64,000 nt of DNA from Pseudomonadota bacterium (GCA_043821645.1 JBDRCO010000070.1:42425-106424); one strand, 5' to 3'. Shown: positions 41,053 to 63,247, counted from the stretch's first letter. Translations and numbers: made by a program. The notes: generated from the sequence alone by a model not told the origin.

Positions 41053-41242
41053 CCGCGGCTGCTCTGTGGCTACCAGGCTGCACGGAAGCCGGGCACCCGC
41101 TATGTCACCTGCTGTCTCGCCACAGCGCACAGCGGGCAGGCCACGAAGCACATCCCTCGATGGCATGGAACCAGGACTGGCATGGATCCCAGAACGATCT
41201 ATGCTCGCGTCTCCCCGCAAGCGCCCCAATAAGGAGTCACCC

Positions 41243-43369: not shown

Positions 43370-45382
43370 TCAGGGAACCTTCGCGTCGGCTACGCCGGAA
43401 TCTTCGGTCGGCGCGGCCTGTCCCTCGGGCAGATCGGGCACGTCCTGGAGCTTCTCGAGTTCGAGGATGGCCTCGGAATAGTTGTCACGCGCGGCCACAG
43501 CCTTCTTGAACTGCGCCTTGGCCTCGGCTTTCTTGCCCTGCTCGCTGAGGACCCGGCCCGCCTGCAAGAAGGCCTCGGCCTGGGTGGCGTCGAGCTCGCC
43601 GGCCTTGAGGAACTCACCTAGTGCTTCCTTGCCCTTGCCTTGCTTGTAGCGTGCAAAGCCCAGGTAGTAGTGCGCCCGCGCCAGGCTCGGATCGTCCTGG
43701 ATGGCTCGCTCGAGCTCGACCATGGCGTCCTTGTCGCGCTCCTGCTTGAGCAGCACCAAACCGAGATCGGCACGCGCGTCCGCGAAGTCGGGTTTCGCCT
43801 TCAGGGCGTGGCGGTACTTCTTGGCCGCCTCGTTGAAGTTGTTCTGACGGTAGGAGATCTCGCCCATGCCCCACAAGGCGTCGGGCATGTCGGGATCCAG
43901 CTTGAGCGCGGTGACGAAGGCATCCCGTGCCTTGTTGGTGTCATTCAGCTCGAGGTAGAGCGCGCCCAGGTAGGCGTGGTTGCGCGTGTCATTGGGGTTC
44001 TGCTCGATGCCCTTCTGGTACTCGGCCACCGCCAGCTTGGTGAAGCCCTGACCGCGCAGGGCCGCCGCCAGCAGGTTCCGGCTCTCGCTGTCCTTGCCAT
44101 CCGCCGCCACGCCGGCCTTGCCGACGGCCACCGCGCGCTCCCACTGCTTCTGGGCAATGAGCAGGCGCAGCAGCTGCCAGCGCACCTCGCGATTGGCCTC
44201 ATCGAGCCCCAGGGCCAGGCCATACTCCTCGATGGCCTTGTCGATGGCGCCGTCCTTGAGGAACAGGTCGGCCATGCGCTGGTGCGCCTTGGCATCCTCG
44301 GGCCGCATGTCTGCCGCCGCCTTGTACGCGGCCATCGCGGCCGTGGTGTCGCCGCGCTGGTAGAACACCTCACCCAGGTACAGCTTGGCGTCGGGATTGT
44401 TGGGCTGCAGCTCCAGCGACTTGGAGAAAGCTTTCTCGGCTTCCTTGAGCTGCTTGCTGCGGTCCTTGCCCGTCTCCATGGCCGAGCGGAAGTATGCGAG
44501 CCCCAGGTTGAAGTGCGCGTCGGCGTAATCGCCCTTGAGCTCGATGGCCTTGAGAAAATGCTGGACCGCGTCGTCATGGCGCTTGAGTCTGGCCAGGACC
44601 ACGGCCAGGTTGTTGTGCGCCTCGGCGTGCTTGGGGTTCAGGGCCAGAGCCTTCTCGTAGGCCGCCACCGCCTCCTTGAAATTGCGGCGTCTGAACTGCA
44701 CCACCCCGGTGTTGTAGAAGGCCTCGGGGTTCTTGGGGTCCCGCTCGATGACGCTGTTGAACTCGGCGAGGGCCTTCTCGAAGTAGCCACGGTCGCCGTA
44801 CAGCTTGCCCAGGTTGATATGGGTCTGGCTCTCCTTGGGCTCCAGCTCGATGGCCTTGAGGTAGGCGCCGATGGCCTCGTCGACCTGGTTGACCACCTCG
44901 TAGGCCTCCCCCAGGTTGAAGTAGGCCGCGGCGAAGTCGGGCCGCTCGGCCACCACCTTCTTGAGTTCCTCGATGGACTCCTTGGTGCGCTGGGACTTGC
45001 GCAGCACCCGCGCCAGGTCGAAGCGCCGATCCGTCGTCGGTTCGCTGGCCACCGCGCGTTGCAGCGCCAGCACTGCCCGCTCTGGCTTGTCGTTCTGCTC
45101 GAGCAACAGGGCCAGCGCCTGCTGCATGTCGGCGTCGTCAGGATCCAGGGCCGCCGCTGACTCCATCATGGCCAGCGCGTCGAGGGGACGATTGATCCGC
45201 GCGTACGCGACACCCAGGGTGAACCGATACTGCGCGTTGTCGGGCTCACGCTTCACCAGGGCCTCGTACTCCATCACGACCTGCTCGTCCTCGGAGTCGC
45301 CCTGGGCGAGGGCGGTGATGGCAACCGTGCTCCATCCGAGCACGAGCATCACGGCCCAAGCTGTGGCTGGCAATCGCATCAT
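43370..45382 (-). CDS. Secreted multi-TPR protein
   Basis: Signal peptide followed by >12 canonical TPRs (e.g. AAYFNLGEAYEVVNQVDEAIGAYLKAIELEP). Confidence 0.9.
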   Translation of the reverse strand: MMRLPATAWAVMLVLGWSTVAITALAQGDSEDEQVVMEYEALVKREPDNAQYRFTLGVAYARINRPLDALAMMESAAALDPDDADMQQALALLLEQNDKPERAVLALQRAVASEPTTDRRFDLARVLRKSQRTKESIEELKKVVAERPDFAAAYFNLGEAYEVVNQVDEAIGAYLKAIELEPKESQTHINLGKLYGDRGYFEKALAEFNSVIERDPKNPEAFYNTGVVQFRRRNFKEAVAAYEKALALNPKHAEAHNNLAVVLARLKRHDDAVQHFLKAIELKGDYADAHFNLGLAYFRSAMETGKDRSKQLKEAEKAFSKSLELQPNNPDAKLYLGEVFYQRGDTTAAMAAYKAAADMRPEDAKAHQRMADLFLKDGAIDKAIEEYGLALGLDEANREVRWQLLRLLIAQKQWERAVAVGKAGVAADGKDSESRNLLAAALRGQGFTKLAVAEYQKGIEQNPNDTRNHAYLGALYLELNDTNKARDAFVTALKLDPDMPDALWGMGEISYRQNNFNEAAKKYRHALKAKPDFADARADLGLVLLKQERDKDAMVELERAIQDDPSLARAHYYLGFARYKQGKGKEALGEFLKAGELDATQAEAFLQAGRVLSEQGKKAEAKAQFKKAVAARDNYSEAILELEKLQDVPDLPEGQAAPTEDSGVADAKVP

Positions 45383-45457
45383 TGCCTCGCTTCCATGCTC
45401 CATCGTGCCAGGCCCGCGATGGAGGTGTACGTGTGACCCTGCCGACGCACCCGGGCC

Positions 45458-46129
45458 TCAATCCGCCCAGGGCCCTCCGAAGGCTCCGCCGCTGGCCTCC
45501 TGCAATCGCTGACTCACGTCGTCGTAACGGCTGCGCACTTCTTCCTGCATGATGCGACTCTCGTCCATCCTGGAGAGTCCGTCGGCCACCTTCTTCTCCC
45601 AGTCCGCCACCTGCTCTTCGAAGCCGGTGAGATTGACGCCAGCCCCGCGCTCTGGATCGTGATCGTGCACAAGCTGGGCCTTGGCGTGCTCGTACCGTGC
45701 GCGTGCCAGCCAGAGCTGGTCCTCGAAGACCTCCCGCTTGACGTAGAGGTGGCGCATCTCGTCGAGCCGCAGCTCCAACCTGAGCTTGGCCCACTCCTTG
45801 TACAGCGCCAGCACGTCCGGGGAGTTGATACCGGAGACCTCGCCGCTGTCATCCAGCAGCTTGACCTTGTCGCGGGCGCGGTCCACGGTCGCCCGCCCGT
45901 CGCTGATCTCCCGCTCCGCCGCCTCGATGTTGTCCTTGGCGATGATGACTTCGTTCTCGGCATCGAACAGCGCCAGCTTCTCATCGTTGGGAATGCGATC
46001 GAGCTGGTTGCGGTCGATGCGGTGCCACAGACCGAAGCAGGCGCCCTGCGTCAGCAGCAGCGTGACCGCAAGCAGTCCGCTGGCCGGGGGTCGATTCCGT
46101 CGTCGCGAGTACAGGTGCACGATGTCCAT
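45458..46129 (-). CDS. Coiled-coil probable lipoprotein
   Basis: Hydrophobic stretch ending TQGAC, then charged helical sequence; co-oriented within the operon. Confidence 0.7.
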   Translation of the reverse strand: MDIVHLYSRRRNRPPASGLLAVTLLLTQGACFGLWHRIDRNQLDRIPNDEKLALFDAENEVIIAKDNIEAAEREISDGRATVDRARDKVKLLDDSGEVSGINSPDVLALYKEWAKLRLELRLDEMRHLYVKREVFEDQLWLARARYEHAKAQLVHDHDPERGAGVNLTGFEEQVADWEKKVADGLSRMDESRIMQEEVRSRYDDVSQRLQEASGGAFGGPWAD

Positions 46130-46148
46130 CCTCCCGCGCCCTCGCACC

Positions 46149-49100
46149 TCAGCCGCCCACTTGCGCCGCCAGCTCGCGCGCCTTGGGCGCCACGTCGGGC
46201 CCTGCGGGCTTGCCGGCAGCGCCATAGGCCGCGCGTGCGCGTTTCAGATCGCCGACCCATGCGTAGAGCGCACCCAGGTTGGCCTGGATCGCGGGATTGC
46301 GCCCGTCGAGTTCTTTGGCGCGCTGCAGGGCGTAGAACGCCTCCTGATAGTTGCCCAGCTGGATGTCCGCCACGCCCATGGCATTGTGGGCAAGGGCGCT
46401 GCCGTCGTTGGCCTCGAGGGCCTTCGCCGCGACGAGCTTGGCCAGGTAGTAGTCACCGGCCTGGTTGGCGGCGCGCGCCAAACCGACCAGCGAATCCACG
46501 TCCTTGGGGTTCTTCTCGATCTTGGCGCGCAGCTCCTCGGCGCCAGGAATCTCCACCTCCTGCCTCGACGGTGCGTGGTCGGCATCCGGCTCCAGCGGCT
46601 GTCCGGTCAGGCAGGCCTTGGCGAAGCGATTGAACGCGTTGAGCTGCACCGACTTGTCCCGGCAGGTGCGGATCGTGTCCGCAGACGACTTGCGGTAATT
46701 GTCCGCCTGCTCCTTGAGAGCAGCCCGGTAGCCGGCCAGCTCCTCGGCGCTGACGCCCTCGGGGGCAGGGGCGTTGTCGAGGAAAGACGCGGCCTCGCCG
46801 TGAGCCTGCCCCAGGCGATAAAGACCACCGATGGCAAACTCGGGATCGCCGTACTTGATGGCCGTGACGTACTGCCCCTCGAGCTCGGCGAGCAGGCCGA
46901 ATTTTTGCTCCAGCACCTGGGCATCGTCGCCCTTGCCAAACTGAATGCCATCAAAGCGCGAGCGCAGGATCTCACCGAGGTAAAATGCAGCCTGGGCACC
47001 GAACCGGATCTGCTCGCCACTCGCCGATCCCGGCGGGATCTGCTGCACCACGGCCATCAGGTTGCCGGCCGCATCCGCTTCCTGCCCTGCCTTGTACTGG
47101 GCTGCGCCTGCCCGCGACAGTGCCTCGATGCCATAGCTCGGATCGGCCATGATGGGCGTCGCGGCCAGGGCCACACGCCGCCACTCACCGGTCTTCTCGG
47201 CCGCGGCGGCCATCTCAGCGTAGGCCCTGGCGGCATCCGGTCCACCCATGTTGGCCAGGCGCTCGTAGTCCGCCATGGCCCCGGAGTAATCCCCCAGGTA
47301 GGTGCGGATCTTCGCCGCGGAACCGAGGAGCTCCACCGCTGCCTCATCGCGCGAGAAGCGGCGCCCGTACTCCTCGTACAGGGCGGCACCACGCACGAAG
47401 TCCGTGCCACGGATGGCCTGCTCTCCCAGGGACGACAGCACCTCCTTGGCGGCGTCCGAGGTGCCATACTCCTCGAGAATCTGGTTCCCGGCCTCGATCA
47501 TGGCCTTGTTGTCGCGCCGGTCGCGCGCCACCACGAAGGCCTGGTACAGGGCCTTGGCGGCGACCTCGCTGCCCTTGCGATCGCCGCTGATGAAGTCCTT
47601 GAGGGCTTCCTGCACGTTGCCGCCGGCCTCGATGGTCTTGGCGTCGATCTCCTGCTGCTCCGCGTTGTCCGCCATGGCGAGGAGCTGCTTCTTGAATCCG
47701 TCGTCTCCGAGGCGTGCGATCTGCGCCAGCTCCCGCGCGACCTTGGCCAGACCCTCGAAGTCCTCCTTGTTGTTGTAGGCATCGAGGGCCAGGTTGGCGG
47801 CTGCGAGCGCGTCCTTGTGCAGCGGGTACTCCCGGGCGAAGGCAATGAACAGCTCGATGGACTTGTCGTACTCGCCCTGCTCGTAGTAAGCGCGGGCCAC
47901 ATTGAACTTGACCTCGGGCACCTGCGGATCGTCCGGAAAGGCCGAGACGAAGGCGGCGCCCAGCGCCTTGAGACCCTCGCGGGCCATGGCCACCTGGTAA
48001 CGGTTCAGGTTCTCCTCGTCCTTGATGCCAGCGAAGTAGGCGTTGATGGCGCTGTTCATCGCCTTCTTGCGCTCGTCGTCCTTGTCGGTATCGCGCGCCA
48101 GGCTCTCGAACTCGCGCCCGGCCTCGACGTACTGCTTGCTCTCGTACAGGCTCTCGGCGTAGTTCCAGCGCATCTCCAGGCGCGTGGGCGAGTCGATGAA
48201 GAGTGACAGGTAGGCCTTGTAGGAGTGGCTCGAGCGCTCGAACAGCTTCTCGCTCGATGTTCGCTGGGCCTCGACGTGGAGCCGGGTCGCCAGGTCACGG
48301 GTGAGCTGCTCGAAGTCCGAGTAAACCTGGTCCTTCTCCTCCTCCTTGGCACGCCACGAGAACCGGTAGCGGGCGGCCGCATCGACCAGCAGCTTGACGT
48401 CCTTGTCCGACTCCTCGCGCTTCTTCGAGGCCTGCACAGCGTCGTACACGCGCTGGGCGTACTCGATGTTGCGATCCACGTCGTGAGAGAGCGACAGCAG
48501 CTCGCGGTACAGGTTGCCCGCCGCGATGTAGTTCTGCTTCACCGAGTAGCGCCGGGCCAGCTTCTCCAGCACCAGCAGGTACTCGGCGCGGCTCGACACC
48601 AGGTGCCGGAAGTACGTGGTGGCGTCCTCGGGCTTCTTGACCTCGGGATAGGCATAGACCAGTGAGGTCAGGGCCTCGCGCTTGACGTTGAGGTTCTTGT
48701 GACTGTCGATCTCCTTGCTCTTCTGCTCGTCGATCAGGGTGTTCTCGACGACCTTCTCGAACAGCCCGAGGGCATCCTTCCACTTCTCGCGGTTCAGATA
48801 GCACCAGCCCAGCTTGAAGCGGGCCATGGGGTGGACATAGCTCTCCTTCTCGCCCAGCACCTTCTTGTAGTAGCCCTCGGCGGTGTCGAGGTCGCTCTTG
48901 TCAAAGTAGTAGTCGCCGACGATGAGCCAGGCCTCGAAGCGGTAGTCGCTCTTGGGATACTTTTCCACCAGCAACAGGTAGGTCTTGATCATCTCCTCGT
49001 ACTGCCCGAGCTCGCGCAGCTCGTGTGCGATGAAGAAGGTGATCTTGTCGTTGTCAGGGTAGCTGGCGAACTCACGCAGCACGCGCCGGTACTCGCGGAT

Positions 49101-49469
49101 GGCAGCGTCCTTGAGCAGCCGCGCCTCGGGGGCCGTGATCGATCGCTTGTCGTCCAGGCCTGCCTCTTCGAGGATCTTGAAGTACACCAGGCGCGATTTC
49201 TCGACGTAGAGCTCGGCCAGACGGAATACCAGATCCGGCAGGTAGCGCTCGCTCTTGGAGCGCGCGATCAGGTCCTTGGTGACCGAGATCGACTTGTCGA
49301 TCTTCTTGATGTCCCGGGCCAGCTTGCGGATGAAGGCTTCCTTGACGTCGCGCTGGGTCGAGAAGTCCGCGGCCAGCGCCGGCTGCGATGCCGACAGCCC
49401 GAAGGCCACGATGAGGCCGAGGGAGGCCAACCAGCGAGCGATGCTGGGAGCGAGGTGTCTGCGTGTCAT
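46149..49469 (-). CDS. GltD/AgmU-like large periplasmic TPR protein
   Basis: Signal peptide; PDLVFRLAELYVEKSR, EAWLIVGDYYFD, ARFKLGWC; 1106 aa; Glt-like gene context. Confidence 0.75.
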   Translation of the reverse strand: MTRRHLAPSIARWLASLGLIVAFGLSASQPALAADFSTQRDVKEAFIRKLARDIKKIDKSISVTKDLIARSKSERYLPDLVFRLAELYVEKSRLVYFKILEEAGLDDKRSITAPEARLLKDAAIREYRRVLREFASYPDNDKITFFIAHELRELGQYEEMIKTYLLLVEKYPKSDYRFEAWLIVGDYYFDKSDLDTAEGYYKKVLGEKESYVHPMARFKLGWCYLNREKWKDALGLFEKVVENTLIDEQKSKEIDSHKNLNVKREALTSLVYAYPEVKKPEDATTYFRHLVSSRAEYLLVLEKLARRYSVKQNYIAAGNLYRELLSLSHDVDRNIEYAQRVYDAVQASKKREESDKDVKLLVDAAARYRFSWRAKEEEKDQVYSDFEQLTRDLATRLHVEAQRTSSEKLFERSSHSYKAYLSLFIDSPTRLEMRWNYAESLYESKQYVEAGREFESLARDTDKDDERKKAMNSAINAYFAGIKDEENLNRYQVAMAREGLKALGAAFVSAFPDDPQVPEVKFNVARAYYEQGEYDKSIELFIAFAREYPLHKDALAAANLALDAYNNKEDFEGLAKVARELAQIARLGDDGFKKQLLAMADNAEQQEIDAKTIEAGGNVQEALKDFISGDRKGSEVAAKALYQAFVVARDRRDNKAMIEAGNQILEEYGTSDAAKEVLSSLGEQAIRGTDFVRGAALYEEYGRRFSRDEAAVELLGSAAKIRTYLGDYSGAMADYERLANMGGPDAARAYAEMAAAAEKTGEWRRVALAATPIMADPSYGIEALSRAGAAQYKAGQEADAAGNLMAVVQQIPPGSASGEQIRFGAQAAFYLGEILRSRFDGIQFGKGDDAQVLEQKFGLLAELEGQYVTAIKYGDPEFAIGGLYRLGQAHGEAASFLDNAPAPEGVSAEELAGYRAALKEQADNYRKSSADTIRTCRDKSVQLNAFNRFAKACLTGQPLEPDADHAPSRQEVEIPGAEELRAKIEKNPKDVDSLVGLARAANQAGDYYLAKLVAAKALEANDGSALAHNAMGVADIQLGNYQEAFYALQRAKELDGRNPAIQANLGALYAWVGDLKRARAAYGAAGKPAGPDVAPKARELAAQVGG

Positions 49470-51250
49470 TCGAAGAGTTCCTCCCCGAAGCAGCGACTCT
49501 CGATGCGGAAGCGGTAGTCGTGCAGCTCGTCGTTCCAGTACTCGCCGTCAAAGGTGTAGTACACGTCACGCGTGCCGACCGGGATCGGCTCCTCGGGCGG
49601 GGGAAGGTCGGTGGAACCCTCACCGGCCTTGAGGCGCTTGAACACCTCGAGCGCCACCTCGTAGTCCACCAGCCGGGCCTGCTCCTCGTAGTCGAGCAAG
49701 GTGTCGGCCACCCGCTTGGCCTCCTCGTTGAGGTCCACCTCGAGCGCGCGCACGGTCTCCTTGATCTTGAGGTCGTAGATGCGCGCCAGGTACTGGGCGA
49801 TGGGCGTCTCGGAGCCAAAGCGCTCGATGAGATCGCGCTCGACCTGCAGGGTCTTGAGGAAGGTCAGACGTCGGCTCGCCACAGGTCCCTGCAGCGCCGC
49901 CGCCCGCAGCGCCGGGTGCGACAGGGGGTCGCGCTTCTGGCGCAGGGTGTCGATGGCCTCGCCGTAACGCCGGCGGTACTCTCGGGCCGCACCCTTGGCC
50001 GCGGCATAGTGGCACAGCTTCTTGTAGATCAGGGCCTGCAGCACGAAGCGCTCGGGCTTGAAGTAATCGCGATAGCTCGGTGCGTCGAGGGAGATCAGGA
50101 TGCCCATGGCACCGCGCATGTCGTTCGCGTAGTAACGGGTCCAGGCCTTCTCCAGGAAGATCAGCGCCTCCTCGTGACTGAGAAAGGGCACGCGCACACG
50201 CTCGTACATATCGAGCGCCTCGGTAAACAGCTCCTGCCGGTTGGCGCGGGAGATCTCGTCGTCCATGCGGGTGCGGGCCCCCTCCTCGAAGTACAGGCGT
50301 GCCAGGGCCTTGAGTGCATCGTTGGCCACCTGGCTGTCCACGTCATTGAGGCTGGCCAGCGAGACCTCGGAGAAGATGCGTCGCGCCGGCATCTCCTTGC
50401 CTCGCTTGAGGGTGTCCACCGCCTGGGCGTAGCGGCCTCGATAGAAGTAGTAGCAGCCCGAGATCTGGCCCAGCCGCTCGTCCCCGAGCTCCGCGGGCTC
50501 GCAGATCTTCTCCACGTCGAGCTTGTCCGCCAGGGTCTTGTTGTAGCACTCGGCGGGACGCGCATCGGTCTCGCACAGCTTCTCGGTGGAGCGCTCGATG
50601 CGAGACAGGCGGTTGGAACAGGTCGGGCAGATGTTGTCAAAGTGCCGTCCCGCCCAGGCATCCTGCCCATCTCGCAGATCGACGAGCCCCTGGGTGTATT
50701 CGACGAAGGCCCGGACGTCGTCGGGGAGGTCGCCGAACTCGCTGCCCGCGATCAGATCGTAGACGAGAAGCTCCTCATCATAGGGGTAGTAGCGCACGAT
50801 CTGCTCGAGGGCGCGCACAGTGTCTGGCAGCAGCGCTGGCTGGCTGCGGGTCTTGGCCACGTTGTAAAAAAATTCGGCCGCTCCGTGCACGAGACCCAGC
50901 TCCTTGAGCGTGCGGGCCAGGTAGTACTCGGTCCACTCGTAGAAGTCTGCCGAGGGTTGGTTCCCGGCGATGTACTCGTGAAACTTGCGTGCCGCGCCCA
51001 TGAAGTCCTTGCTATTGAAGGCCGCGACACCCTCCTTGAACACCTCCTCGGTCACCGCGACGACCTCGCCTGGCTCGGCTGCCGCGGCAGTTGCTTCGGC
51101 GGCCTCCGGGGTCGCTTCGGCTGGCGCCTCGGCTGCAGCAGGTGCAGCCTCCTCGGCAGGGGGCGCGTCCTGTCCACGCGCCGACGACAGACCCAGGGTC
51201 AGCGCCGCCAGAGTCCACAGTGCTGTTCGTGTCGTTCGTGTCGTTCGCAT
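49466..51250 (-). CDS. GltC-like TPR protein
   Basis: Signal peptide; LEKAWTRY, C-terminal YTFDGEYWNDELHDYRFRIESRC as in GltC-type proteins; directly follows two OM barrel genes. Confidence 0.75.
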   Translation of the reverse strand: MRTTRTTRTALWTLAALTLGLSSARGQDAPPAEEAAPAAAEAPAEATPEAAEATAAAAEPGEVVAVTEEVFKEGVAAFNSKDFMGAARKFHEYIAGNQPSADFYEWTEYYLARTLKELGLVHGAAEFFYNVAKTRSQPALLPDTVRALEQIVRYYPYDEELLVYDLIAGSEFGDLPDDVRAFVEYTQGLVDLRDGQDAWAGRHFDNICPTCSNRLSRIERSTEKLCETDARPAECYNKTLADKLDVEKICEPAELGDERLGQISGCYYFYRGRYAQAVDTLKRGKEMPARRIFSEVSLASLNDVDSQVANDALKALARLYFEEGARTRMDDEISRANRQELFTEALDMYERVRVPFLSHEEALIFLEKAWTRYYANDMRGAMGILISLDAPSYRDYFKPERFVLQALIYKKLCHYAAAKGAAREYRRRYGEAIDTLRQKRDPLSHPALRAAALQGPVASRRLTFLKTLQVERDLIERFGSETPIAQYLARIYDLKIKETVRALEVDLNEEAKRVADTLLDYEEQARLVDYEVALEVFKRLKAGEGSTDLPPPEEPIPVGTRDVYYTFDGEYWNDELHDYRFRIESRCFGEELFE

Positions 51251-51954
51251 CAGTCGTACCCGATGTTGAAGGAGCCACCGAGCCCCAGGAACAGCACGTT
51301 GTCGATCTCGAAGCGCGGCGGGTCGAGCAAGAAGGCATCGACGGCCAGCACCATGTAGTGGCGCAGATCGACACGTACCGAGAACCATTCGGCCGAGAAC
51401 ACGCGAAGTCCCATGCCGTAGTTGAAGCCAGCCCGGTGGCTCAGGAAGCCCGGCTCGAAGCTCGTCGACGACGGGGAGTACAGAATATAGGCGGGTCCCG
51501 CGGTGAGGCTGAACTCGCTGTGCACGATCACCCGGTTGAACAGCGCCATCTTGCCGTAGAAGGGCTTGAGAACATAGTTGCTGTCCGCGATGATCACGGC
51601 CTCCCGGAACTCGTAGTCGGTGAGCGGATTGGCGCCAAACTCCTCGATCAGAGCCTCCTTGAGCCGGGTATCCCAGTTGAAGGAATAGCTGACGCCGAAG
51701 ACTTCCCAGGCGTGGCTTTCGGAGAAGTGCCACACGTAGCGCAAGGTCCCGGTCACGCCCTTGTAGTAGGCGTCGATGGGGATCAGGCCCACCTGCAGCG
51801 ACAGCTCGTGCGCCATCTTGTAGCGTCGGTTCTGGATCACCTGGGGCGGATTGTCGGGGTCGCGGACACTGACCGCCGCCGCTGGTGCAGCCACCACAGC
51901 CGTCAGCGCCAGTGCAGCGGCCGCGCGCATGACCTGCTCGAGCATGCTCGTCAT
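51250..51954 (-). CDS. GltA/GltB-like outer-membrane beta-barrel protein
   Basis: VIQNRRYKMAHELS...DAYYK, KPFYGKMA, GMGLRVF.AEWFSVRVDLRH. Confidence 0.8.
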   Translation of the reverse strand: MTSMLEQVMRAAAALALTAVVAAPAAAVSVRDPDNPPQVIQNRRYKMAHELSLQVGLIPIDAYYKGVTGTLRYVWHFSESHAWEVFGVSYSFNWDTRLKEALIEEFGANPLTDYEFREAVIIADSNYVLKPFYGKMALFNRVIVHSEFSLTAGPAYILYSPSSTSFEPGFLSHRAGFNYGMGLRVFSAEWFSVRVDLRHYMVLAVDAFLLDPPRFEIDNVLFLGLGGSFNIGYD

Positions 51955-51955
51955 C

Positions 51956-52669
51956 TCACTCGAACCCCACGTTGAAGGACCCACCCGCGCTGAGGAACAG
52001 AATGTTGTCGACGCCCGCGTTGGGATCCAGGAAAGGAATGCCATTGAGGAACAGGTAGTGACGGATGTCCAGACGCACCGAGAACCACTCGGCCACGAAG
52101 AAGCGGATGCCGACGCCGTAGTCCAGACCGGGGCGCCACGACGACACGTACTTGGCCACGCCGCCACCGGCGTTGAAGAACAGCTCGGAGTAAACGATGG
52201 TGCTGTTGAAGAGCGCCAGCTTCGAGTAGGCCGGCTTGAGCACGTAGTTGCTGGCCATCAGGATCTGCAGCGCATCGAACTCGCTGGACTCGGGCTCGGC
52301 ACGCCACTTGAAGATCTCCTCGCGCACACCGGTCTCGATGTTCTGCGAGTAGGCCAGGTGTACGATCTCCCAGCCCTGGAAGTCGCCGAAGTGCAGGGTG
52401 TAGCTGAAGCTCCCCACCGCGCCTTTGTAGTAGGCGTTCATCGGCTGGATGCCCGCGGACATCGAGAACTCGTGGGTGAGCTTGAACCGGCGCTGCTGGA
52501 TCACCACCGCGTAACCGCCCACATCCTCGTCGTCATAGGCCGCCGCGGCGGGAGCGGCGAGCCCCAGCGTCGTCACCGCCAGCAGAGCGCCGACCCAGCT
52601 CGCGCGCCGCACGCGCGCCCCTTGAGATCTGTTGCTCACTACCGTTCCTCCGGTTGCTGCACGTCGCAC
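51956..52669 (-). CDS. GltA/GltB-like outer-membrane beta-barrel protein (paralog; start uncertain)
   Basis: VIQQRRFKLTHEFS...NAYYK, KPAYSKLA, GVGIRFF.AEWFSVRLDIRH; clearly paralogous to its neighbour. Confidence 0.8.
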   Translation of the reverse strand: MRRAATGGTVVSNRSQGARVRRASWVGALLAVTTLGLAAPAAAAYDDEDVGGYAVVIQQRRFKLTHEFSMSAGIQPMNAYYKGAVGSFSYTLHFGDFQGWEIVHLAYSQNIETGVREEIFKWRAEPESSEFDALQILMASNYVLKPAYSKLALFNSTIVYSELFFNAGGGVAKYVSSWRPGLDYGVGIRFFVAEWFSVRLDIRHYLFLNGIPFLDPNAGVDNILFLSAGGSFNVGFE

Positions 52670-52699
52670 CTGTGCGCAGCAGGGACAGCTCGCGCTGCC

Positions 52700-55240
52700 T
52701 CAGAATCCCATGGCGTTGAAGATGAACGGATAGGTCACCACCACCGTGCCCCCGCGCGGCGCCGGGAACTTCCAGCCCTTGATGCTCCCGATCATGCACT
52801 GCACCGCCGTCGCGCTCTTGAGTGTCGACGTCGTGGTCTTGACGATCTGCACGCTGCCGTTGAGGCCGATGGTCCACTCGAACACGACCTTGCCCGACAG
52901 CGAGTTGTTCTTGAGCAGCTCCTTCTCGTAGCAGAACTGGATCTGCCCCAGGCCCTTGTTGACGACCTTCTGGATCTCGGCGCGGTCGAGGTAGCCCGTG
53001 CCGGCGGTCTTGGACGCCCGCGAGGCCTTGACCAGCTTGCCACGCACACCACCTGTCTTGAGTTTGGACAGGGTTCCCGGGCCGCCGCCACCCTCGCGCA
53101 GGATCGAGGCCAGGCCCTTGGTGGAGACCCCGCCTCCGGAGCCACCGATCTGCACCCGGTTGGTCGGCCCCTTGCCGATGAGGCCCGACACCTTGTAGCT
53201 GGAGCCACCACCCGGTACCTTGACCGCGTCGAGGTTGCTCACCGCGGCGGTCAGGGTCTGGCTTCCGGCCGGACCGGACATCTTGGGGATCTTGCCCAGG
53301 GCGGCCATGATGCCAGGCTTCTTGTTGGCCACGTTGGCATTGGTCGGACGCGGCGTACGCTGCGGCTTCTCGGGCTTGATCTCCTCGGGTGGCGCCTCCT
53401 CGACGACTTCCTCGTCGGGAGGAGGCTCCTCCTCGGGAGGCTTCTCGAGCTCGAGTTCCTTCTGCTCCAGCTGCACGAAGCGATCTTCCTCGAGCTGAGT
53501 CACCAGCTGCCCGGGAGCCAGCAGACCGATGATGAAGGCCACCAGCAGCACCGTCAGATGGGTCGCGCCCGAGGACGCGAAGCTGATCCCCAGCCAGCGC
53601 AGCTCCCGCTTCTCCTCGGCCGAGGACTTGCCGCGCACCGTGACCTGGCGCGCCACCGCCGGCGGATAGGCGAAGCGTACGAAGTAGCTCTCGCTGCCAA
53701 CCTGCAGGTTGGCGATGTCACCGGCGTTGAGCTTGATCGCGCCCTTGTCACCGCTCCAGCTGACGACCTGGTCCAGCGGCTTGGACGACCCGTTCTGGCG
53801 GACCTTGCCCTTGAAGTCCTTGAGCACCACCAGGTCCGCGCTACCGTCGCGGCGCAGGCGCGCCAGCTTGTGGTTGGTGGGCAGGCCCACCCGCTGGGCC
53901 TCTTTCTTGTTCAAACCCTTGCCCACGATGAACAGCTGACCCTTGCCCAGGGCTTCGAGCTCGTGCACCACGTTGCCCTTGTAGCGGATGACCTCGAGCA
54001 GCGGCGTGCGCAGCTGCTTGACCTTGCCCTCCTTGAAGCTCTCCTTGAGCAGGTTCTCGAGCAGAGAGAAGGGCGCGGGCAGATCGTCGGGATCCTCGTC
54101 CTCATCCGCCTCGGGCACCTCCCCGGGCAGGGGCATCAGGGCGCTCAGGGGCAGTGCTCCGACATCGCCCGCGGGCGTGGCTGGCACCGAGGCCAGGCCT
54201 GCGCTGGCGGCAACGCGCGCCGAGACGGCGGCGTGCGCTGTGGGTTCGATGACGGGGGGTGCGGCCGGCGGGGGCGCGACCACCGGCGGGGCGACCGCTG
54301 CCGTCGGAGGCGCGGGGGCGCGCTTGCGTTCGACCACCGGCGCGGGGTCAGGCTCCGGGATCAGGGACTCGAGATCGCCGAGGGCGGCCAGGGGGTCCGT
54401 GACCCCGCCTGGCATCGAATTCGGCAACGGGGGCATCTCGAAGCCGGCGTCGATAGGTGCCGCGCCCGGAAGGGCTCCGTGGCTCAGCCCGGCCACGTCT
54501 GCGAACAGCGCATCGGCCAGACCCGGGGCCACCTCTGTTGGCCCGTCGTGCACGCCGGGCGGAGGCGGGGGTGCCGCGAAGGGATCTGCGACTCGACGCA
54601 CGGCCTTGCCAGACACGGGGTCAGGCTGCTGCGAGGACGACAGCTCGCGCCAGGGGTCCGAGCGCGGCGTGTTGAACGGCGCCAGGCTGGCCTGCGCTGG
54701 CGCAACAGCTGCGCGAGGCGCCGCGGGAGCCGCTGCCACGGCCTGCTGCGGCCGGGTTGGGGCCCGCGGTGGCGCCGGCTTCGCGACCACCGGCTGCTGC
54801 GGTGCGGTGGGCGCGCGAGAGGGCATGGGATGCTGGATGGTCTGATCGGCCTGGTAGCTGTGAACCTTGGTGGCGTCGTGGTCCTGTGGTGCCGCCGCGG
54901 CCGGTGGCGTGGACATGGCGGCCGGGCTGGCGGACAGGATCTTGAGCTTGAGGGTGTGCCGGCCCACAAACACGTCGTCGCGGCCGCCCAGGGCGCGCTG
55001 GCCCACCACCGCCTCGCCGTTGACCTGGGTGCCGTTGGCACTTTGCAGATCCTCGACGTAGATCTGGTTGTTCAGCACGAACAGCGCGGCGTGGCGCCTG
55101 GACACGAGGTCGTCGTCGTCGATGACCAGACCACAGGTGGGATCGCGGCCGATCTCGATCCGCTCACCGGTGAGCATCTCGGTACCGAGATAGCTCCCGT
55201 CGCGAAAGATGAAGGCCTGAAGGACCGTTCCAGCCATCAA
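52700..55240 (-). CDS. GltG/PglI-like protein: FHA domain, Pro-rich linker, TM helix, TonB-C-like domain
   Basis: FHA motifs IGRD, VSRRHA, SANGT; single TM with S...H motif; C-terminal IQFCYEKELL..LSGKV..EWTI...WKFPAPRGG.V.V.YPFIF. Confidence 0.85.
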   Translation of the reverse strand: MMAGTVLQAFIFRDGSYLGTEMLTGERIEIGRDPTCGLVIDDDDLVSRRHAALFVLNNQIYVEDLQSANGTQVNGEAVVGQRALGGRDDVFVGRHTLKLKILSASPAAMSTPPAAAAPQDHDATKVHSYQADQTIQHPMPSRAPTAPQQPVVAKPAPPRAPTRPQQAVAAAPAAPRAAVAPAQASLAPFNTPRSDPWRELSSSQQPDPVSGKAVRRVADPFAAPPPPPGVHDGPTEVAPGLADALFADVAGLSHGALPGAAPIDAGFEMPPLPNSMPGGVTDPLAALGDLESLIPEPDPAPVVERKRAPAPPTAAVAPPVVAPPPAAPPVIEPTAHAAVSARVAASAGLASVPATPAGDVGALPLSALMPLPGEVPEADEDEDPDDLPAPFSLLENLLKESFKEGKVKQLRTPLLEVIRYKGNVVHELEALGKGQLFIVGKGLNKKEAQRVGLPTNHKLARLRRDGSADLVVLKDFKGKVRQNGSSKPLDQVVSWSGDKGAIKLNAGDIANLQVGSESYFVRFAYPPAVARQVTVRGKSSAEEKRELRWLGISFASSGATHLTVLLVAFIIGLLAPGQLVTQLEEDRFVQLEQKELELEKPPEEEPPPDEEVVEEAPPEEIKPEKPQRTPRPTNANVANKKPGIMAALGKIPKMSGPAGSQTLTAAVSNLDAVKVPGGGSSYKVSGLIGKGPTNRVQIGGSGGGVSTKGLASILREGGGGPGTLSKLKTGGVRGKLVKASRASKTAGTGYLDRAEIQKVVNKGLGQIQFCYEKELLKNNSLSGKVVFEWTIGLNGSVQIVKTTTSTLKSATAVQCMIGSIKGWKFPAPRGGTVVVTYPFIFNAMGF

Positions 55241-55260
55241 GTCCTCGTCGGGGTCGTCGG

Positions 55261-55702
55261 TCAGTCGATCGAACGGATGATCTCGTCACGAAAGGTCGTG
55301 CGTCGCCGGACCATGCTCCGCAGCTCCGAACTCTTGCGCTCGAAGATGTAAATGGCACCCGACTTGTTGCTCTGCCCCTGGATCAGGCGGTCGTCGAAGT
55401 CGACGCGCGCCGGCCCACGTCGGCTGGACATGATAGGACCGCCGCCTGCATCGTCGTCGTCACCCGAACTCGACGCCGCGGGTGGTGGAGGCGGAGCGGG
55501 GGGGGGGCGTCGCTTCCTCAGGCGCAGGCGTTGTCTTGGTGCCCTTCTTCTTGCGGCCACGCTTGGCCACCAGCACTCCAGCCTCGACACCGCCCTGGAT
55601 ACGGGGCGTTGCCGCGGTCGGCAGGGCCTGGCTGGAGTCCGGGAGGAGCAGGCAGAGCCCACCCAGAATCAACGGCAGCGACCACACATTGTTGCGTGTC
55701 AT
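55261..55702 (-). pseudogene. GltF/CglF-like small secreted protein, frameshifted at a G10 run (55498-55507)
   Basis: The signal-peptide frame (MTRNNVWSLPLILGG...) and the conserved C-terminal frame (RVDFDDRLIQGQ...Y.FERK...F..EI) differ by one base. The span is 442 nt; removing one G gives a 146-aa ORF. Confidence 0.75.
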
Positions 55703-55712
55703 CGGCCTCCCC

Positions 55713-56201
55713 CTACCTCGCCATGACGGCGAACTGGAAGTTGGCGAACCCGGCCATGCCACAGGTCTTCATCACCTTGTTGATGATGTCGAAGCCCACG
55801 CTCTCGTCCGCCATGAAGAGGATGACGGTCTCCTCGTCGGCGTTCTTGCCGCTGGCCGCGGTCTCCTCCATGATGCGCGCCCGCTTCTTTTCCAGGGTGT
55901 TGAATAGCGGGACGATCTTGTTGCCCTCGACCTGCACCTTGACCAGCTCGCCCTTGTTGATCTTGCCGATGACCTCGTCCTCGACGGTCAGGGCGTCCTT
56001 GGACACGAAGACCTGCACCGTCTTGGTGAAGCCGCGCTCGGAAATCGAGGGAGGCAGCGTGATGTCGCTGTGCACCTTGACGTCCTGATCCTCGCTCGAG
56101 AACGAGTGCAGCAGGAACACCAGGATGATGGTGAACATGTCCATCATCGAGGTGATGTTGAGGGCAACGACGGCCGAGGCCTGCTTGCGCTTGCCAAGCA
56201 T
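55713..56201 (-). CDS. ExbD/TolR family protein (AglS-like)
   Basis: LNITSMMDMFTIILVFLL, ADES, VMKTCGMAGF. Confidence 0.9.
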   Translation of the reverse strand: MLGKRKQASAVVALNITSMMDMFTIILVFLLHSFSSEDQDVKVHSDITLPPSISERGFTKTVQVFVSKDALTVEDEVIGKINKGELVKVQVEGNKIVPLFNTLEKKRARIMEETAASGKNADEETVILFMADESVGFDIINKVMKTCGMAGFANFQFAVMAR

Positions 56202-56716
56202 CAGGTCACCAGACTCGACACGACGACGCGTGGGAACATGATGTAGCGCTGTTTCTTGCCACCGATCTCGATCTCCAGCTCACGCGCGGCATCCATGGTC
56301 TCGACCAGTTCCTTGTACTTGACCGTGGGGTCCGACACGATGATCACGGTGTCGCTCTTGTCCCACTTGCGCTTGACCTCGCGCATGTAGCTGCTCAAGG
56401 CGGCAAAGTCGTAATCGCCACCCTTCTTGGGGAAGCTGCGCGCCAGCTTGTTGGTCTCGTCAGGGTGCAGTGTCGCCGACGAGGCCGAGACCAGGAAGCC
56501 ATCCTTGGGATCGATCTGCACGGTCATCGTCACCGTGTCGTCGCCCTTGGCGATGTCGGTCTGTCCCTCGGTGGCTGCGGGCACCGAGCCCTTGATCACG
56601 CGCAGGTGGAAGAACACTGCCGACAGAAGCAAGAAGGGGATGAGCGCCACGAACAGGTTCATGATCGGAATGAGGTTGAGATCGACCTCCTCGTACTCCT
56701 TCCGCTTGGCGAACAT
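56201..56716 (-). CDS. ExbD/TolR family protein (AglQ position)
   Basis: DLNLIPIMNLFVALIPFLL, Y..LV.TMDAAR, FP.VV. Confidence 0.88.
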   Translation of the reverse strand: MFAKRKEYEEVDLNLIPIMNLFVALIPFLLLSAVFFHLRVIKGSVPAATEGQTDIAKGDDTVTMTVQIDPKDGFLVSASSATLHPDETNKLARSFPKKGGDYDFAALSSYMREVKRKWDKSDTVIIVSDPTVKYKELVETMDAARELEIEIGGKKQRYIMFPRVVVSSLVT

Positions 56717-56740
56717 GCGAACCCTCCGCTGGTCGCTGGC

Positions 56741-57382
56741 TCAGCCCGCGGCGCGCGCCCGCGACTCGGCATTGCGCGAGGTGATGCGGTTGAACAGGGT
56801 GATCGAGCCCTCCTCGATGGTCTCGCTGAGCATGTTCTGGCGCGTGACCAGCACCGAGAAAGCGACCATGGTCGGGATCGCCACGATCAGACCGAAGGCC
56901 GTGGTGCCCATGGCGGTCGAGATACCTTTGGCCAGGATCTCCTGCTTCTGGGCCGCGTCGGCAGCACCGATGCCGGAGAAGGCCTCGATCAGACCGAAGA
57001 TGGTGCCCAGCAGTCCGAGCAAGGTCGACACGTTGGACAGCATGGAGAGGTAGTTGGTGCGCTTGGCCAGCTTGGGCATGACCCGAGCCGCCGCCTCCTC
57101 CATGGAGCGCTGGATCTCCTTGTCGCCGCGGTTGGCCTTGAGCAGACCTGCCTTGAGCACCATGGCCAGGGGATGATCCGGACGCAGGTTGCAGACCTCG
57201 ATGGCCCGCGTGAAGTTGTCCGCATCCACGAAGGACAGGATGTGGCTCAAGAACTGCGACGCGTTGATGCGGTACTTGAACCACAGCACGTACACGCGCT
57301 CGATGATCAACCCCAGACTCACGAATGAGACGCCCAGAATCACGTACATGAACGGGCCGCCCTTGTTCAGCCACTCGAACAT
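56741..57382 (-). CDS. MotA/TolQ/ExbB proton-channel family protein (AglR-like)
   Basis: GGPFM, IIER, TLLGLLGTIFGLI.AF, GISTAM.TTAFGLIVAIP; GGAGG RBS before ATG 57382. Confidence 0.93.
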   Translation of the reverse strand: MFEWLNKGGPFMYVILGVSFVSLGLIIERVYVLWFKYRINASQFLSHILSFVDADNFTRAIEVCNLRPDHPLAMVLKAGLLKANRGDKEIQRSMEEAAARVMPKLAKRTNYLSMLSNVSTLLGLLGTIFGLIEAFSGIGAADAAQKQEILAKGISTAMGTTAFGLIVAIPTMVAFSVLVTRQNMLSETIEEGSITLFNRITSRNAESRARAAG

Positions 57383-57446
57383 GGTGCTTGTGCCTCCTGC
57401 TTTGTCGTCGGGGTCCCGGCATGACCGACCCCACAGTGGAAGTCGG

Positions 57447-57475
57447 ATATTAAGCGGACCCCTTACAGCTGTCAA
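57447..57475 (-). promoter_or_regulatory. Sigma70-type promoter of the agl/glt-like operon
   Basis: Minus strand TTGACA (57475-57470)-N17-TAATAT (57452-57447), 65 bp upstream of the ATG. Confidence 0.65.
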
Positions 57476-57653: not shown

Positions 57654-59198
57654 CTACTGACTGATCGAGCGCTTGAGGATCACGCCCTCGCTGCCGACCA
57701 CGAACACGCTGCGCAGGGCCGGTGCCTCGGCGTCGCGGCTGCCCGCGTCCAGGTCGTCGCGGGTCTTGCCCCAGATCGCGCGCAGGTGGGCGGTGGTGGG
57801 GACCTGCTCCACCAGCCACTGGCCTCCGCTGTGGTGCAGGACCACCCCCGAGAAGCCGGCCACGAAGAAGTCGTCGCGCCCCTGGTGCCACAGCGCGCGC
57901 AGGAACACAGGTGTCGGTGGCGTCAGGAAGGTGCGTATCCACTCGGCCTGGGTCACATCGCTGCCGCGCACCCACTCGTCGTCGCCGTTGCGCCACAGGA
58001 TGCGCCCGTCCTCGCCCACGGCGTGCACGTTGGTGCTCCAGGTCCCCCACACCCCGGCCAGGGAGTCGCGCACCGCCGGGTTGTCCGTGCTGCCAGCCCT
58101 CGCCACCGGCCGCCAGCAACTCGCCGGCGTCTGGGTGGGCGTCAGGCCCTCGCAGTTCCAGGTCGCACCCGCGCCCGAGGTGCCGTTGGGACGCAGCTCG
58201 ACCACGGCGCCGCTCTCGCCCACGGCGATCACGCGCAGATCCGCGCCCGAGCCAAAGCCCACCACCGCCTTGAAGTCGACGAGGTAGAAGTTGACCTGGT
58301 AGGCCGGCGAGACACCGTCTGCCTGGCAGCGCTGACCAAAGGAGCACTGCGCCGTGTCGCCCCGGCGCATGGTGGACGGAACCTCGCAGTCCACCGGGTC
58401 ATAGTCCGGACCCTGGCACAGGCGCACCGTCGCGGAACCGCTCGCCGAACACATCCACATGCTCTGCGGCAGCGGCGAGCCGTCGTCGTTGGTCACGAGG
58501 TTGCCACTGCTGTCGCGCGGAGGAGCGATGTTGCATGGCTGGCAGGTGCTCCCAGTACCCGCAAAGGGGTAGCCGTCGGCATCGTAGGCCACCCGCGCCT
58601 CGCACACCGGCATGCGATTCTGCACCATCTCCTCGATCATCAGGCCCCAGGTATAGGGAGCCTGGGGATCGCCGGGATCCGGCTTCTTCTGCAGCACGGT
58701 CCCCTCCTCGCCCACCGCGAACACGCCCTCCCGGCCGCCGTGCCACACGCCCATCAAGGTGTCGACGACATTGCCGGCGTTGGTCTTGCGCAGGTCCGGC
58801 ACCGCGGGCTCGGGAGCCCACACCACGCCGTCCCAGTGGATCACCGTGCCACTCGCCCCCACCGCATAGATGTCCTTGTCGCCATCCTGCATGGTTTCGT
58901 GGCCGTCGATGCCGAACAGATCCTGCGTGGTCGGCGAGGGCACCCGGGTCCAGGTGGTGCCGTCGTAGTGCAGGATGGTGCCAGCCGAGCCCACGGCCCA
59001 TACGTCGTCATGGGAGTAGCCCCACACGCCGTTCAGGTTGGCCACATCCGGAAAGGGTTGCTGCAAGACCCACAGCGCCTCGCTCGAGGTCGGAGGAGCC
59101 GCGTCGGGCGGAGTCACCAGGGGGTTGGCACAGTTCTCGTCACAGGCTGGCATCGCGATCAGCGCCAGCGCCAGACTCGACATCGCCCATCGTCTCAT
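57654..59198 (-). CDS. Beta-propeller probable lipoprotein with a Cys-rich insert
   Basis: Lipobox-like AMPAC; repeats L.GVWG....VWAVG..G.ILH.DG..W; central ~110-aa Cys-rich segment; start approximate. Confidence 0.8.
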   Translation of the reverse strand: MRRWAMSSLALALIAMPACDENCANPLVTPPDAAPPTSSEALWVLQQPFPDVANLNGVWGYSHDDVWAVGSAGTILHYDGTTWTRVPSPTTQDLFGIDGHETMQDGDKDIYAVGASGTVIHWDGVVWAPEPAVPDLRKTNAGNVVDTLMGVWHGGREGVFAVGEEGTVLQKKPDPGDPQAPYTWGLMIEEMVQNRMPVCEARVAYDADGYPFAGTGSTCQPCNIAPPRDSSGNLVTNDDGSPLPQSMWMCSASGSATVRLCQGPDYDPVDCEVPSTMRRGDTAQCSFGQRCQADGVSPAYQVNFYLVDFKAVVGFGSGADLRVIAVGESGAVVELRPNGTSGAGATWNCEGLTPTQTPASCWRPVARAGSTDNPAVRDSLAGVWGTWSTNVHAVGEDGRILWRNGDDEWVRGSDVTQAEWIRTFLTPPTPVFLRALWHQGRDDFFVAGFSGVVLHHSGGQWLVEQVPTTAHLRAIWGKTRDDLDAGSRDAEAPALRSVFVVGSEGVILKRSISQ

Positions 59199-59305
59199 GA
59201 GAGCCCTCCGCGATTCCTGTCCTGCCATCATGTCGCGCCACATAACCTAGCAAAAAGCGTGCTCCGCGTCTCCAGGGTCGCCAAATCCCTGCTTCCGGCG
59301 CAAGC

Positions 59306-59321: not shown

Positions 59322-59331
59322 ACACCCCAGG

Positions 59332-59360: not shown

Positions 59361-59409
59361 TGGTGACGGCACATGCCGGGCCACATCCAGGTCCGGCCGG
59401 GGCACGTAC

Positions 59410-62531: not shown

Positions 62532-63007
62532 AGCGGATCGTCGTCGTCAGCTGTGTGCTGGGCCTGCTTGCAGCCTGCTCGCTGTCCAGCGAGGACGGCT
62601 TCATCCAGGGCGCGCGCAAGGATCCCTGCGACAACGCCATCCCGGTCTGCTCCTACACCGCGGGCTGCCGCCTGGTCGAGAACGAGAACTACATCGAGGC
62701 GGCGTTTCCGGGCTTTCTCAGCTTCATCGTGCCCACCGCGGGCGAGGCCGAGATCTCGGTCATCTTCTACTTCCGCGACCAGGCCGCCCCGGGCAGCGAC
62801 ACCGAGATCATCTGGTACGAGCCCGGCTGCCGCGACCAGTACAGCCACTACCTGCCGGGCATCGATCTGTTCCGCCAGGTCGGCAACGATCGCCTGTGGA
62901 CCGTCGTGGGCACGGTGTACCAGGAAGGCGATCACATGATCGAGATTCGCTCCGACGCCTCGGCGGAGTTCTTGCTCAAGATCGAGATCGAACAGCTGAC
63001 CAACTGA
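62528..63007 (+). CDS. Small lipoprotein
   Basis: MKRIVVVSCVLGLLAAC lipobox; DPC...PVC...AGC motif. Confidence 0.78.
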   Translation: MKRIVVVSCVLGLLAACSLSSEDGFIQGARKDPCDNAIPVCSYTAGCRLVENENYIEAAFPGFLSFIVPTAGEAEISVIFYFRDQAAPGSDTEIIWYEPGCRDQYSHYLPGIDLFRQVGNDRLWTVVGTVYQEGDHMIEIRSDASAEFLLKIEIEQLTN

Positions 63008-63114: not shown

Positions 63115-63247
63115 GATACGAATTCATATTGAATCGCACACAGTGTGGGGCCCGGCCTTCATAGGCGAGTCTTTTTGTCTTTGCAGCCTCGGAAAAACAG
63201 TCTCGCCTGGGCCCCCCACAACAGGACCCATCAGCACGATTCGGTAT
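63115..63247. repeat. 133-bp palindromic interspersed element, copy 2
   Basis: Ungapped match to 823-955; contains TGTGGGGCCC...GGGCCCCCCACA and AGGCGAG...CTCGCCT; its last base overlaps the TAA stop of the 63247..63717 gene. Confidence 0.8.

Follow-up and report, generated by a model that had tools for sequence, protein, structure and literature searches.

A G5-type Glt gene block headed by its own Agl-like motor in a relative of Myxococcaceae, and its possible connection with Mts-type lipoproteins

In Myxococcus xanthus, five clusters of Glt genes (G1 to G5) and two motors of the AglRQS type (M1 and M2) were listed by Luciano et al. in 2011 (PMC3169522). Motor M1 together with G1 and G2 makes up the Agl-Glt gliding machine, and G3 is the Nfs set of the spore coat, which is devoid of its own motor; M2 (MXAN_3003-3005) and G4 (MXAN_1923-1919), a separate pair, are uncharacterised paralogs of the same family. 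The jobs of G4, G5 and M2 have been open since the 2011 survey, and later work excluded M2 only for motility and sporulation (PMC3858216). The present text concerns a block of eleven genes on the minus strand of a 64,000-nt stretch of assembled DNA (GCA_043821645.1 JBDRCO010000070.1:42425-106424; this whole stretch is hereafter called the window), which run in the order R, Q, S, F, G, barrel 1, barrel 2, C, D, X and T. The source organism belongs to the same phylum as Myxococcaceae. To judge from the sequences, the block is almost certainly an ortholog of the M. xanthus cluster G5, and its first three genes very probably encode a motor of a third group, designated M3, distinct from both AglRQS and MXAN_3003-3005.

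The union of motor and Glt genes in one locus, which a preliminary description of the window had emphasised, is already published. The core complex is encoded by a single locus in Gammaproteobacteria and Geobacter, and four motor and Glt loci are given for Bdellovibrio (Bd0828-0838, Bd1481-1474, Bd0420-0413 and Bd2377-2369; PMC3169522). Bd1481-1474, with the order R, Q, S, D, F, G, B, C in the same source, opens with R-Q-S, as the window block does, and has no GltE; most AglR-like proteins from 11 genomes of the Bdellovibrio-related class, B. bacteriovorus itself not among them, lie on the M1/M2 side of the motor tree.

Apparently new are the third motor group, its linkage with G5 and the co-occurrence of G5 with genes of the MtsD family. 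Neither a third motor group nor a link between G5 and mts genes was met in the literature searched, which largely left subscription papers outside, and the survey in Figure S9 of PMC3858216 may bear on this novelty. The available portions of two reviews (2025, PMC12288465; 2026, PMC13104615) and of a 2026 fitness screen (bioRxiv 2026.08.28.747804) add nothing on G5 or M2, and the accessible text of a 2023 paper mentions MXAN_1327, the gltD gene of G5, once, among Tad-like pilus genes (PMC10196010).

Membership of the block in the G5 group

Cluster G5 of M. xanthus (MXAN_1331-1327) consists of F, G, a barrel, C and D of 162, 749, 246, 538 and 1089 amino acid residues (aa), and GltE is not listed for it in Table S3 of Luciano et al. 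(PMC3169522). The window has the same order F-G-barrel-C-D without a recognisable gltE after gltD. A closed 9.0-Mb genome of Myxococcaceae (G112, family f11; the proteins of another f11 genome, G012, carry Myxococcaceae in their source names) was used as a stand-in for M. xanthus, and its clusters were matched to the Luciano Table S3 by order and length (G5 D, 1089 aa; G4 G, 447 aa; M1 R/Q/S, 245/162/194 aa; M2 Q/S, 173/193 aa). All eight non-motor proteins of the window have their best match in its G5 cluster. Thus, GltD is 36% identical to the G5 copy (E=4e-179 in one search, 1.6e-176 in another) and 23-24% identical to the G1, G3 and G4 copies (1e-21 to 1e-26), and GltC is likewise closer to the G5 protein (32% identity, E=2e-85) than to the NfsC-type one (24%, E=1e-14).

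The GltD tree, built by FastTree from 83 rows with fragments under 350 profile columns and duplicate loci excluded, contains four groups, G5, G4, G1 and Nfs, with support of 99-100. The GltD of the window is placed in the 32-row G5 clade (support 100) along with the 1089-aa copy of G112. In the assembly containing the window (G000; 7.07 Mb, completeness 94.7%), one GltD locus was found per group (the window, contig C37 twice and contig C89), so that the window is not the gliding or the spore-coat set of this genome, because separate loci fall in those groups. The Nfs set resembles the window in being a single locus with barrels, C, D, F and G; it differs in the order A-B-C-D-E-F-G-H, in the lack of its own motor and in its separate GltD clade, to which the locus on C89 belongs. 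The gltC of that locus (L027:6108-7773) appears as two open reading frames separated by a stop codon, and their junction contains no homopolymer. The earlier suggestion of an uncharacterised paralog stands as regards function, whereas the block itself proves to be the counterpart of a described cluster with the same gene order.

In contrast to M. xanthus G5, the block of the window begins with an M3 motor and encodes a second barrel. Both barrels exceed the TIGR04565 cut-off (69 and 77 bits versus 60); barrels group by lineage, only one is present in Myxococcaceae, and the pair looks like a duplication within the lineage of the window. The survey of gene order across Myxococcota, which the preliminary description had proposed, revealed exactly the same 11-gene order in nine genomes of family f4 (G005, G024, G031, G051, G056, G071, G076, G081 and G101). 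G038 follows it as far as the contig end, and G120 and G265 follow it within the fetched stretch, except for a single barrel.

The two additional subunits noted earlier are real, and X and T are regular parts of G5, present in Myxococcaceae too, where they follow the cluster, with mts genes lying divergently upstream. X, T and the mts link are absent from the G5 table of Luciano et al. (PMC3169522). The X profile matched 99 of 151 genomes of the phylum, mostly once each and in a few cases weakly, including 40 of the 44 f11 genomes. The lipobox cysteine of X is invariant in the 29 homologs listed, and its model is a confident three-helix coiled coil (predicted local distance difference test score 86.5). 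No Pfam or NCBIfam family was matched by X, Foldseek gave nothing at E<=0.001, and the best VIA-align score (Z 11.2) is in the range common to helical bundles; because these matches are generic helical bundles only, no fold family is named. T stands after X in nearly all G5 loci with sufficient flank. It aligns with GltE-type proteins only as a generic TPR protein, as C and D do (X gives no match), and is a possible stand-in for GltE. In family f6 (L050:9229-12431; similarly L052, L054, L058 and L060), about 3.3 kb of small lipoprotein genes lie between gltD and X, including homologs of the window genes 62528-63007 and 63247-63717.

The Agl-Glt gliding machine has homologous AglR/Q/S, GltF, G, A/B, C and D, with VWA-type lipoproteins as its likely surface partners. 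In comparison with it, the motor and GltD of the window are in other clades, GltH, I, J and K are not recognised in the block, and the scores are below the cut-offs of the gliding equivalogs (GltG 164/650, GltC 62/450, CglF 27/90, GltE 133/225); the NCBIfam cut-offs are passed by GltG (1094) and GltE (744) from the G1 set of G112, which served as a positive control. Gliding, named among the possible jobs of the block, is unlikely because G000 has a separate gliding-clade locus, whose GltC scores 568 against the cut-off of 450. Luciano et al. suggested that holders of AglRQS and GltA-G are potential gliders (PMC3169522), and M1-group aglRQS was not found in G000, so that one may think of the block as the gliding machine of its lineage, or of M3 as a general motor driving the G1 and Nfs sets as well. 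We consider this quite improbable. G5 has no recognisable GltE, H, I, J or K, the M. xanthus G5 mutant still glides (PMC3169522), and M1 may simply be unassembled in G000, since this assembly is 94.7% complete and the related genome G001 has M1.

The motor subunits do belong to the Pfam families of TolQ/TolR and ExbB/ExbD, and sequence searches in the PDB gave matches only to FHA domains and TolQ/ExbB. Nevertheless, an ordinary set of Tol-Pal or Ton components joined to TPR genes by chance is hardly credible: the scores are far below the cut-offs (80 versus 221 for TolQ, 52 versus 206 for ExbB), a tolA-tolB-pal or tonB context was not found, AglR of the window is 40% identical to M1 AglR and likewise to M2 AglR of G112, and the 11-gene order recurs in nine other genomes. 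Together, the equivalog scores, the motor and GltD trees and the G112 comparison refute a Tol/Ton identity and bear out the assignment to the Agl-Glt family of trans-envelope machines. A protein search with GltC gave 52 matches with uninformative names.

The third motor group and its linkage with G5

Motor trees were constructed from 89 AglR rows (a quick tree) and from 86 joined R+Q+S rows, representing 39 genomes of the phylum. In both trees M1 and M2 are recovered, and the window falls in a further set, M3. The split of M3 has a support of 98 in the AglR tree; the joined tree gives 99.8, 100 and 87 for M1, M2 and M3, and the M2 clade of the MXAN_3003-5 type (support 100) excludes the window. 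The statement that the block has its own motor is thereby corroborated. With distant TolQ-like outgroups, the root was placed inside M3 with weak deep support, a result not relied on, and M3 may be a basal grade rather than a clade. The split of M3 from M1 and M2 mirrors that of G5 from the rest in the GltD tree.

The two ExbD-like subunits, Q and S, match PF02472 with E=4e-13 and 3e-12, respectively. Thr120 and Thr161 of AglR are invariant across 21 M3 rows, and the membrane Asp of AglS is kept in 20 out of 20. At the corresponding AglQ site, Asp occurs in 13 and Asn in 7 of 20 M3 rows, the window having Asn; M1 always has Asp (28/28), and Asn is found in 12 of 38 M2 rows.

On the M3 profile, M1 and M2 rows reach at most 230 bits and left-out M3 rows reach 227-304 bits. 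At a threshold of E<=1e-69, with seven candidates scored per genome, 65 of 401 genomes of the phylum were matched; divergent copies could fall below this threshold, and the phylum tallies include one unpublished genome (G183), which is the sole basis of no claim. The matches comprise 16/17 genomes of family f4, 18/19 of f6, 7/10 of f18 and 4/5 of f30, with none in f11 (0/185), f15 (0/64), f29 (0/23) and f26 (0/10). None of 17 AglR-like proteins from the 11 genomes of the Bdellovibrio-related class exceeded 198 bits; 14 of them are on the M1/M2 side, and three are long-branch outliers.

Among 30 other M3 loci with wide flanks, five of which were chosen since their coordinates already suggested linkage, 17 adjoin G5 genes, one is separated from G5 by 24 kb that include Mts genes, and two adjoin only Mts and propeller genes. 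The position of the motor varies: it precedes F in f4, f30, f16 and f21 and follows T in G008 and G045, and in G001 it is found before T. In the joined tree, the window motor groups with those of f4, f16, f21, f23 and f30, apart from that of G001 of the same family; the motor was therefore either exchanged or retained differentially.

M2 pairs with G4, because the G4 clade contains every one of the eight GltD proteins labelled as encoded at an M2 motor or close to it; the absence of binding of MXAN_3003 to GltG and NfsG, reported by Wartel et al. (PMC3858216), fits this pairing. Locus C37:177-189 kb of G000 (L025:3394-14784) has the order C-D-E-R-Q-S-G, that of the core complex, with an M2 motor and a G4-clade GltD, and a GltE-like gene directly precedes M2 in many genomes. 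Tandem motor triplets were observed in G030 (C21, L238:5622-9394; M2 then M3) and G003 (C114, L090/L099; M1 then M2), which may be compared with the pair sce2991-2996 listed for Sorangium. Stray genes in G000 are a lone aglQ-like gene (C87:73630-74265), an extra gltF (C51:126659-127150) and a G5-type gltG (C63:78909-80465).

Mts-type lipoproteins and the possible function of the block

In one uniform search of 30 genomes, MtsD-family genes were found in all 22 genomes with G5 and in none of the eight without it, these genomes being kin and not independent. Such a gene lies within 20 kb of the G5 gltD in 5 of 11 genomes and within that distance of other gltD paralogs there in none of 31 cases; Fisher's test on coordinates compared by hand gives p=5e-4, which is overstated because related genomes are not independent. 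MtsD-family or propeller genes stand beside G5 or M3 in 25 other genomes examined. Divergently beside the G5 gltF, G112 encodes a true MtsC at 600 bits (cut-off 350) and a true MtsD at 1353 bits (cut-off 800), and G012 likewise encodes a true MtsD there (1328). In M. xanthus, MtsC is MXAN_1334 (bioRxiv 2022.03.08.483542), three locus tags from G5, and it is cited as required for cohesion, social motility and development (PMC11980579). In the window itself, the divergent gene 59410-61497 encodes a lipoprotein with the MtsD-type layout, a VWA domain followed by TSP3 repeats, and its 118 bits against the MtsD cut-off of 800 make it a family-level homolog, not an ortholog. Because propeller and MtsD-family genes recur beside the block, it is probably not the self-contained machine that had been supposed.

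In our opinion, since G5 and MtsD-family genes co-occur and often adjoin, the G5-M3 block may encode a proton-driven trans-envelope machine displaying, holding or moving Mts-type VWA/thrombospondin lipoproteins on the cell surface for cohesion between cells or with the matrix. This proposal, drawn by analogy, is given a probability of roughly 0.45. As in the predicted Agl-Glt model (PMC11761067), the AglR5-Q-S channel would drive GltG by pulling its membrane helix, with a single Asp, on AglS, in the motor subclade of the window. GltG has the layout of an FHA domain, a Pro/Ala-rich linker, one membrane helix (about 551-582) and a TonB-like C-terminal domain; its periplasmic part would be wrapped around GltD, GltF would connect GltG/GltD with GltC, and GltC would in turn be seated on both barrels. 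X, with its lipid anchor and coiled coil, and the TPR protein T would stand in for GltE and for parts of the GltK type, which are not recognised in the block. MtsD-like lipoproteins might take the role that CglB and CglD have in gliding, where the VWA lipoprotein CglB co-purifies with GltA/B/C/H/K (PMC9946355) and CglD has VWA and COMP/TSP domains (bioRxiv 2023.10.19.562135). In Myxococcaceae, G5 would either rely on M1 or M2 or be motorless. A complex predicted from both barrels and the VWA portion of the neighbouring MtsD-like protein (score 0.01, mark 0.32) is evidence neither way.

A number of observations speak against such a role. A polar mutation of MXAN_1327 did not appreciably affect motility (PMC3169522), whereas MtsC is cited as needed for social motility, and MtsC carries a MYXO-CTERM tag and reaches the surface by a route of its own (bioRxiv 2022.03.08.483542). 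The VWA domain of the window neighbour has a degenerate metal-ion-dependent adhesion site (D-G-S-N-I), and stronger MtsD-family matches were found on another contig of G000. No MtsD-like gene was seen in the G5 flanks fetched for G002, G038, G014, G030, G069 and G145, several contigs ending too early for a judgement, nor in that of G039, where MtsD-like genes adjoin M3 instead. In ten of the 30 M3 loci, G5 and Mts genes are both absent from the surroundings, and no G5 was found in two holders of M3, G044 and G050. The kinship of the genomes counted and the preselection of five M3 loci weigh in the same direction. Finally, the M1 motor was not found in the G000 assembly despite its gliding-clade and Nfs-clade Glt loci, and therefore M3 or M2 may serve other Glt sets there.

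The normal motility of the MXAN_1327 mutant (PMC3169522) also fits a matrix role, in which G5-M3 would move or organise a surface polysaccharide or another matrix polymer, as Agl-Nfs handles the spore coat, the mts genes being merely co-regulated neighbours in a locus for building the surface. The two characterised machines of the family both work on sugar polymers (PMC3858216), and the trans-envelope part shares its architecture with them. We rate this explanation as unlikely: it leaves the co-occurrence of 22/22 versus 0/8 unaccounted for, and no gene of polysaccharide synthesis was noticed among the recurring neighbours that were queried (VWA/TSP3 proteins, a propeller and small lipoproteins), the others not having been annotated systematically.

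A further point against Mts display, and in favour of an energised sensing or uptake device, is provided by a second G5-type gltG in G000 and G001, which is fused to an N-terminal zinc anti-sigma-like domain and directly follows a gene of an extracytoplasmic function (ECF) sigma factor (L030:6961-10147, G000 C65; L318:3819-7178, G001 C5). The C-terminal half of the fusion protein is 65% identical to the window GltG. A signal might then pass from a ligand of the barrel through GltG and its FHA domain to gene expression in the style of TonB-dependent signalling, in agreement with the TonB-like domain on GltG and with a published 4-5 fold rise of gltH expression upon deletion of gltG in M. xanthus. 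The fusion was observed in two genomes only, both of one family, and the window GltG has no anti-sigma domain. TonB-dependent transporters are far larger than the barrels of about 200 aa, and sensing seems rather improbable to us.

If the Mts cohesion machine is accepted as the preferred reading, a wider scheme, possible although doubtful, may be drawn: ancestral Myxococcota would have had M1 with G1/Nfs, M2 with G4 and M3 with G5, the last being the oldest, a motorised integrin-like cohesion machine carrying Mts VWA/thrombospondin adhesins across the cell surface, and Myxococcaceae would have lost M3 and kept a remnant. G5 beside mts in M. xanthus would then be re-wired or motorless, and the operon in the window would be the intact original. 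An ancestral-type arrangement had been mentioned in the preliminary description; the strong split of G5/M3 from the rest in both trees agrees with it, but the root is unsure and the motor position varies between lineages.

Gene order across uncultured Myxococcota thus assigns motors to transducers, M2 to G4 and M3 to G5, and adds two conserved subunits to G5. It also names the neighbouring mts cohesion genes, with their known mutant phenotype, as candidate cargo of G5, a function we infer, and this proposal is testable by routine genetics of M. xanthus.

Locus layout, gltF and surrounding genes

Family calls and coordinates confirm the eleven co-oriented genes in the order described earlier, from the ATG at 57382 to the stop at 43370 (Table 1). 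Three junctions overlap (Q/S and B/C, TGATG; C/D, ATGA), and the remaining seven intergenic gaps measure 1-78 bp.

Table 1. Features of the block and its surroundings, in window coordinates
Feature	Position	Strand	Basis
R, AglR-type motor subunit, 213 aa, group M3	56741..57382	-	MotA/TolQ/ExbB PF01618, E=2e-27
Q, AglQ-type, ExbD-like, 171 aa	56201..56716	-	PF02472; Asn at membrane Asp site
S, AglS-type, ExbD-like, 162 aa	55713..56201	-	PF02472; membrane Asp kept
F, GltF (G5 type), ~146 aa, signal peptide	55261..55702	-	CglF(GltF)-like, E=4e-6
G, GltG (G5 type), 845 aa	52700..55237	-	FHA and GltG/AgmX-PglI C-terminal domain, E=6e-48
Beta-barrel 1, GltA/B family, predicted outer membrane	51956..52639	-	TIGR04565; 35% to single G5 barrel of G112
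Beta-barrel 2, GltA/B family, predicted outer membrane	51250..51954	-	TIGR04565; 44% identical to barrel 1
C, GltC (G5 type), 594 aa, predicted periplasmic, TPR-like	49466..51250	-	GltC-like, E=6e-17
D, GltD (G5 type), 1106 aa, predicted periplasmic TPR scaffold	46149..49469	-	GltD tree, G112 comparison
X, lipoprotein, G5-specific	45458..46129	-	Invariant lipobox Cys; predicted three-helix coiled coil
T, long TPR protein, signal peptide	43370..45379	-	30%, E=5e-56 to G112 G5 copy; conserved last G5 gene
Sigma70-type promoter-like site, TTGACA-17-TAATAT	57447..57475	-	Consensus match only, 10/12; 65 nt upstream of R ATG
Beta-propeller-like lipoprotein	57654..59243	-	Co-oriented upstream; recurs beside G5 or M3 genes
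MtsD-family lipoprotein, candidate cargo	59410..61497	+	Divergent; VWA fold, TSP3 Ca-binding repeats, C-terminal beta domain
Small Cys-containing lipoprotein	62528..63007	+	Recurrent homologs near mts/G5 genes, in f6 also between gltD and X
Small lipoprotein	63247..63717	-	Weak homologs (27-43 bits) in several G5/mts neighbourhoods
TraB-like protein	41066..43126	+	TSP3 repeats and an OmpA domain, with a barrel-like N-terminus; 311 bits against a TraB cut-off of 700; convergent to block end

The near-consensus sigma70 site holds as a sequence match, whereas position 57475, given earlier as the end of the block, belongs to its -35 hexamer and not to the first gene. When the bases of the 271-bp intergenic stretch were shuffled 2000 times, 10/12 was reached twice, the site having been picked post hoc, and a scan over 17 kb gave four sites versus 1.4 expected.

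In the assembly, a frameshift within ten consecutive G (55498-55507) interrupts gltF, and both halves align to one gltF gene of G001. At these G residues, contigs from two public groundwater sequencing runs of different studies (X1 and X3) are one base shorter, the sole indel listed across 43300-62600 (19.3 kb). X1, which covers 30 of 30 bins of that interval, may be the source sample. Because the contigs of both runs lack the extra base, the frameshift is probably an assembly error and the single gltF gene described earlier is probably intact in the cell. Phase variation at the G10 run was considered, and an assembly error is preferred over switching since the in-frame length is found in X1 and X3 alike; rare variants are lost from contigs, which limits this check.

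The TraB/OmpA-like gene 41066-43126 was rejected as a part of the block, because a homolog was found in only one of the related loci scanned. Further along the window, a tandem two-domain LOG/SLOG (lysine-decarboxylase-like) protein is encoded at 39121-41052 (+), and an open reading frame of 1514 aa is situated at 34866-39410 (+), which resembles an Lhr-type helicase in its motifs.

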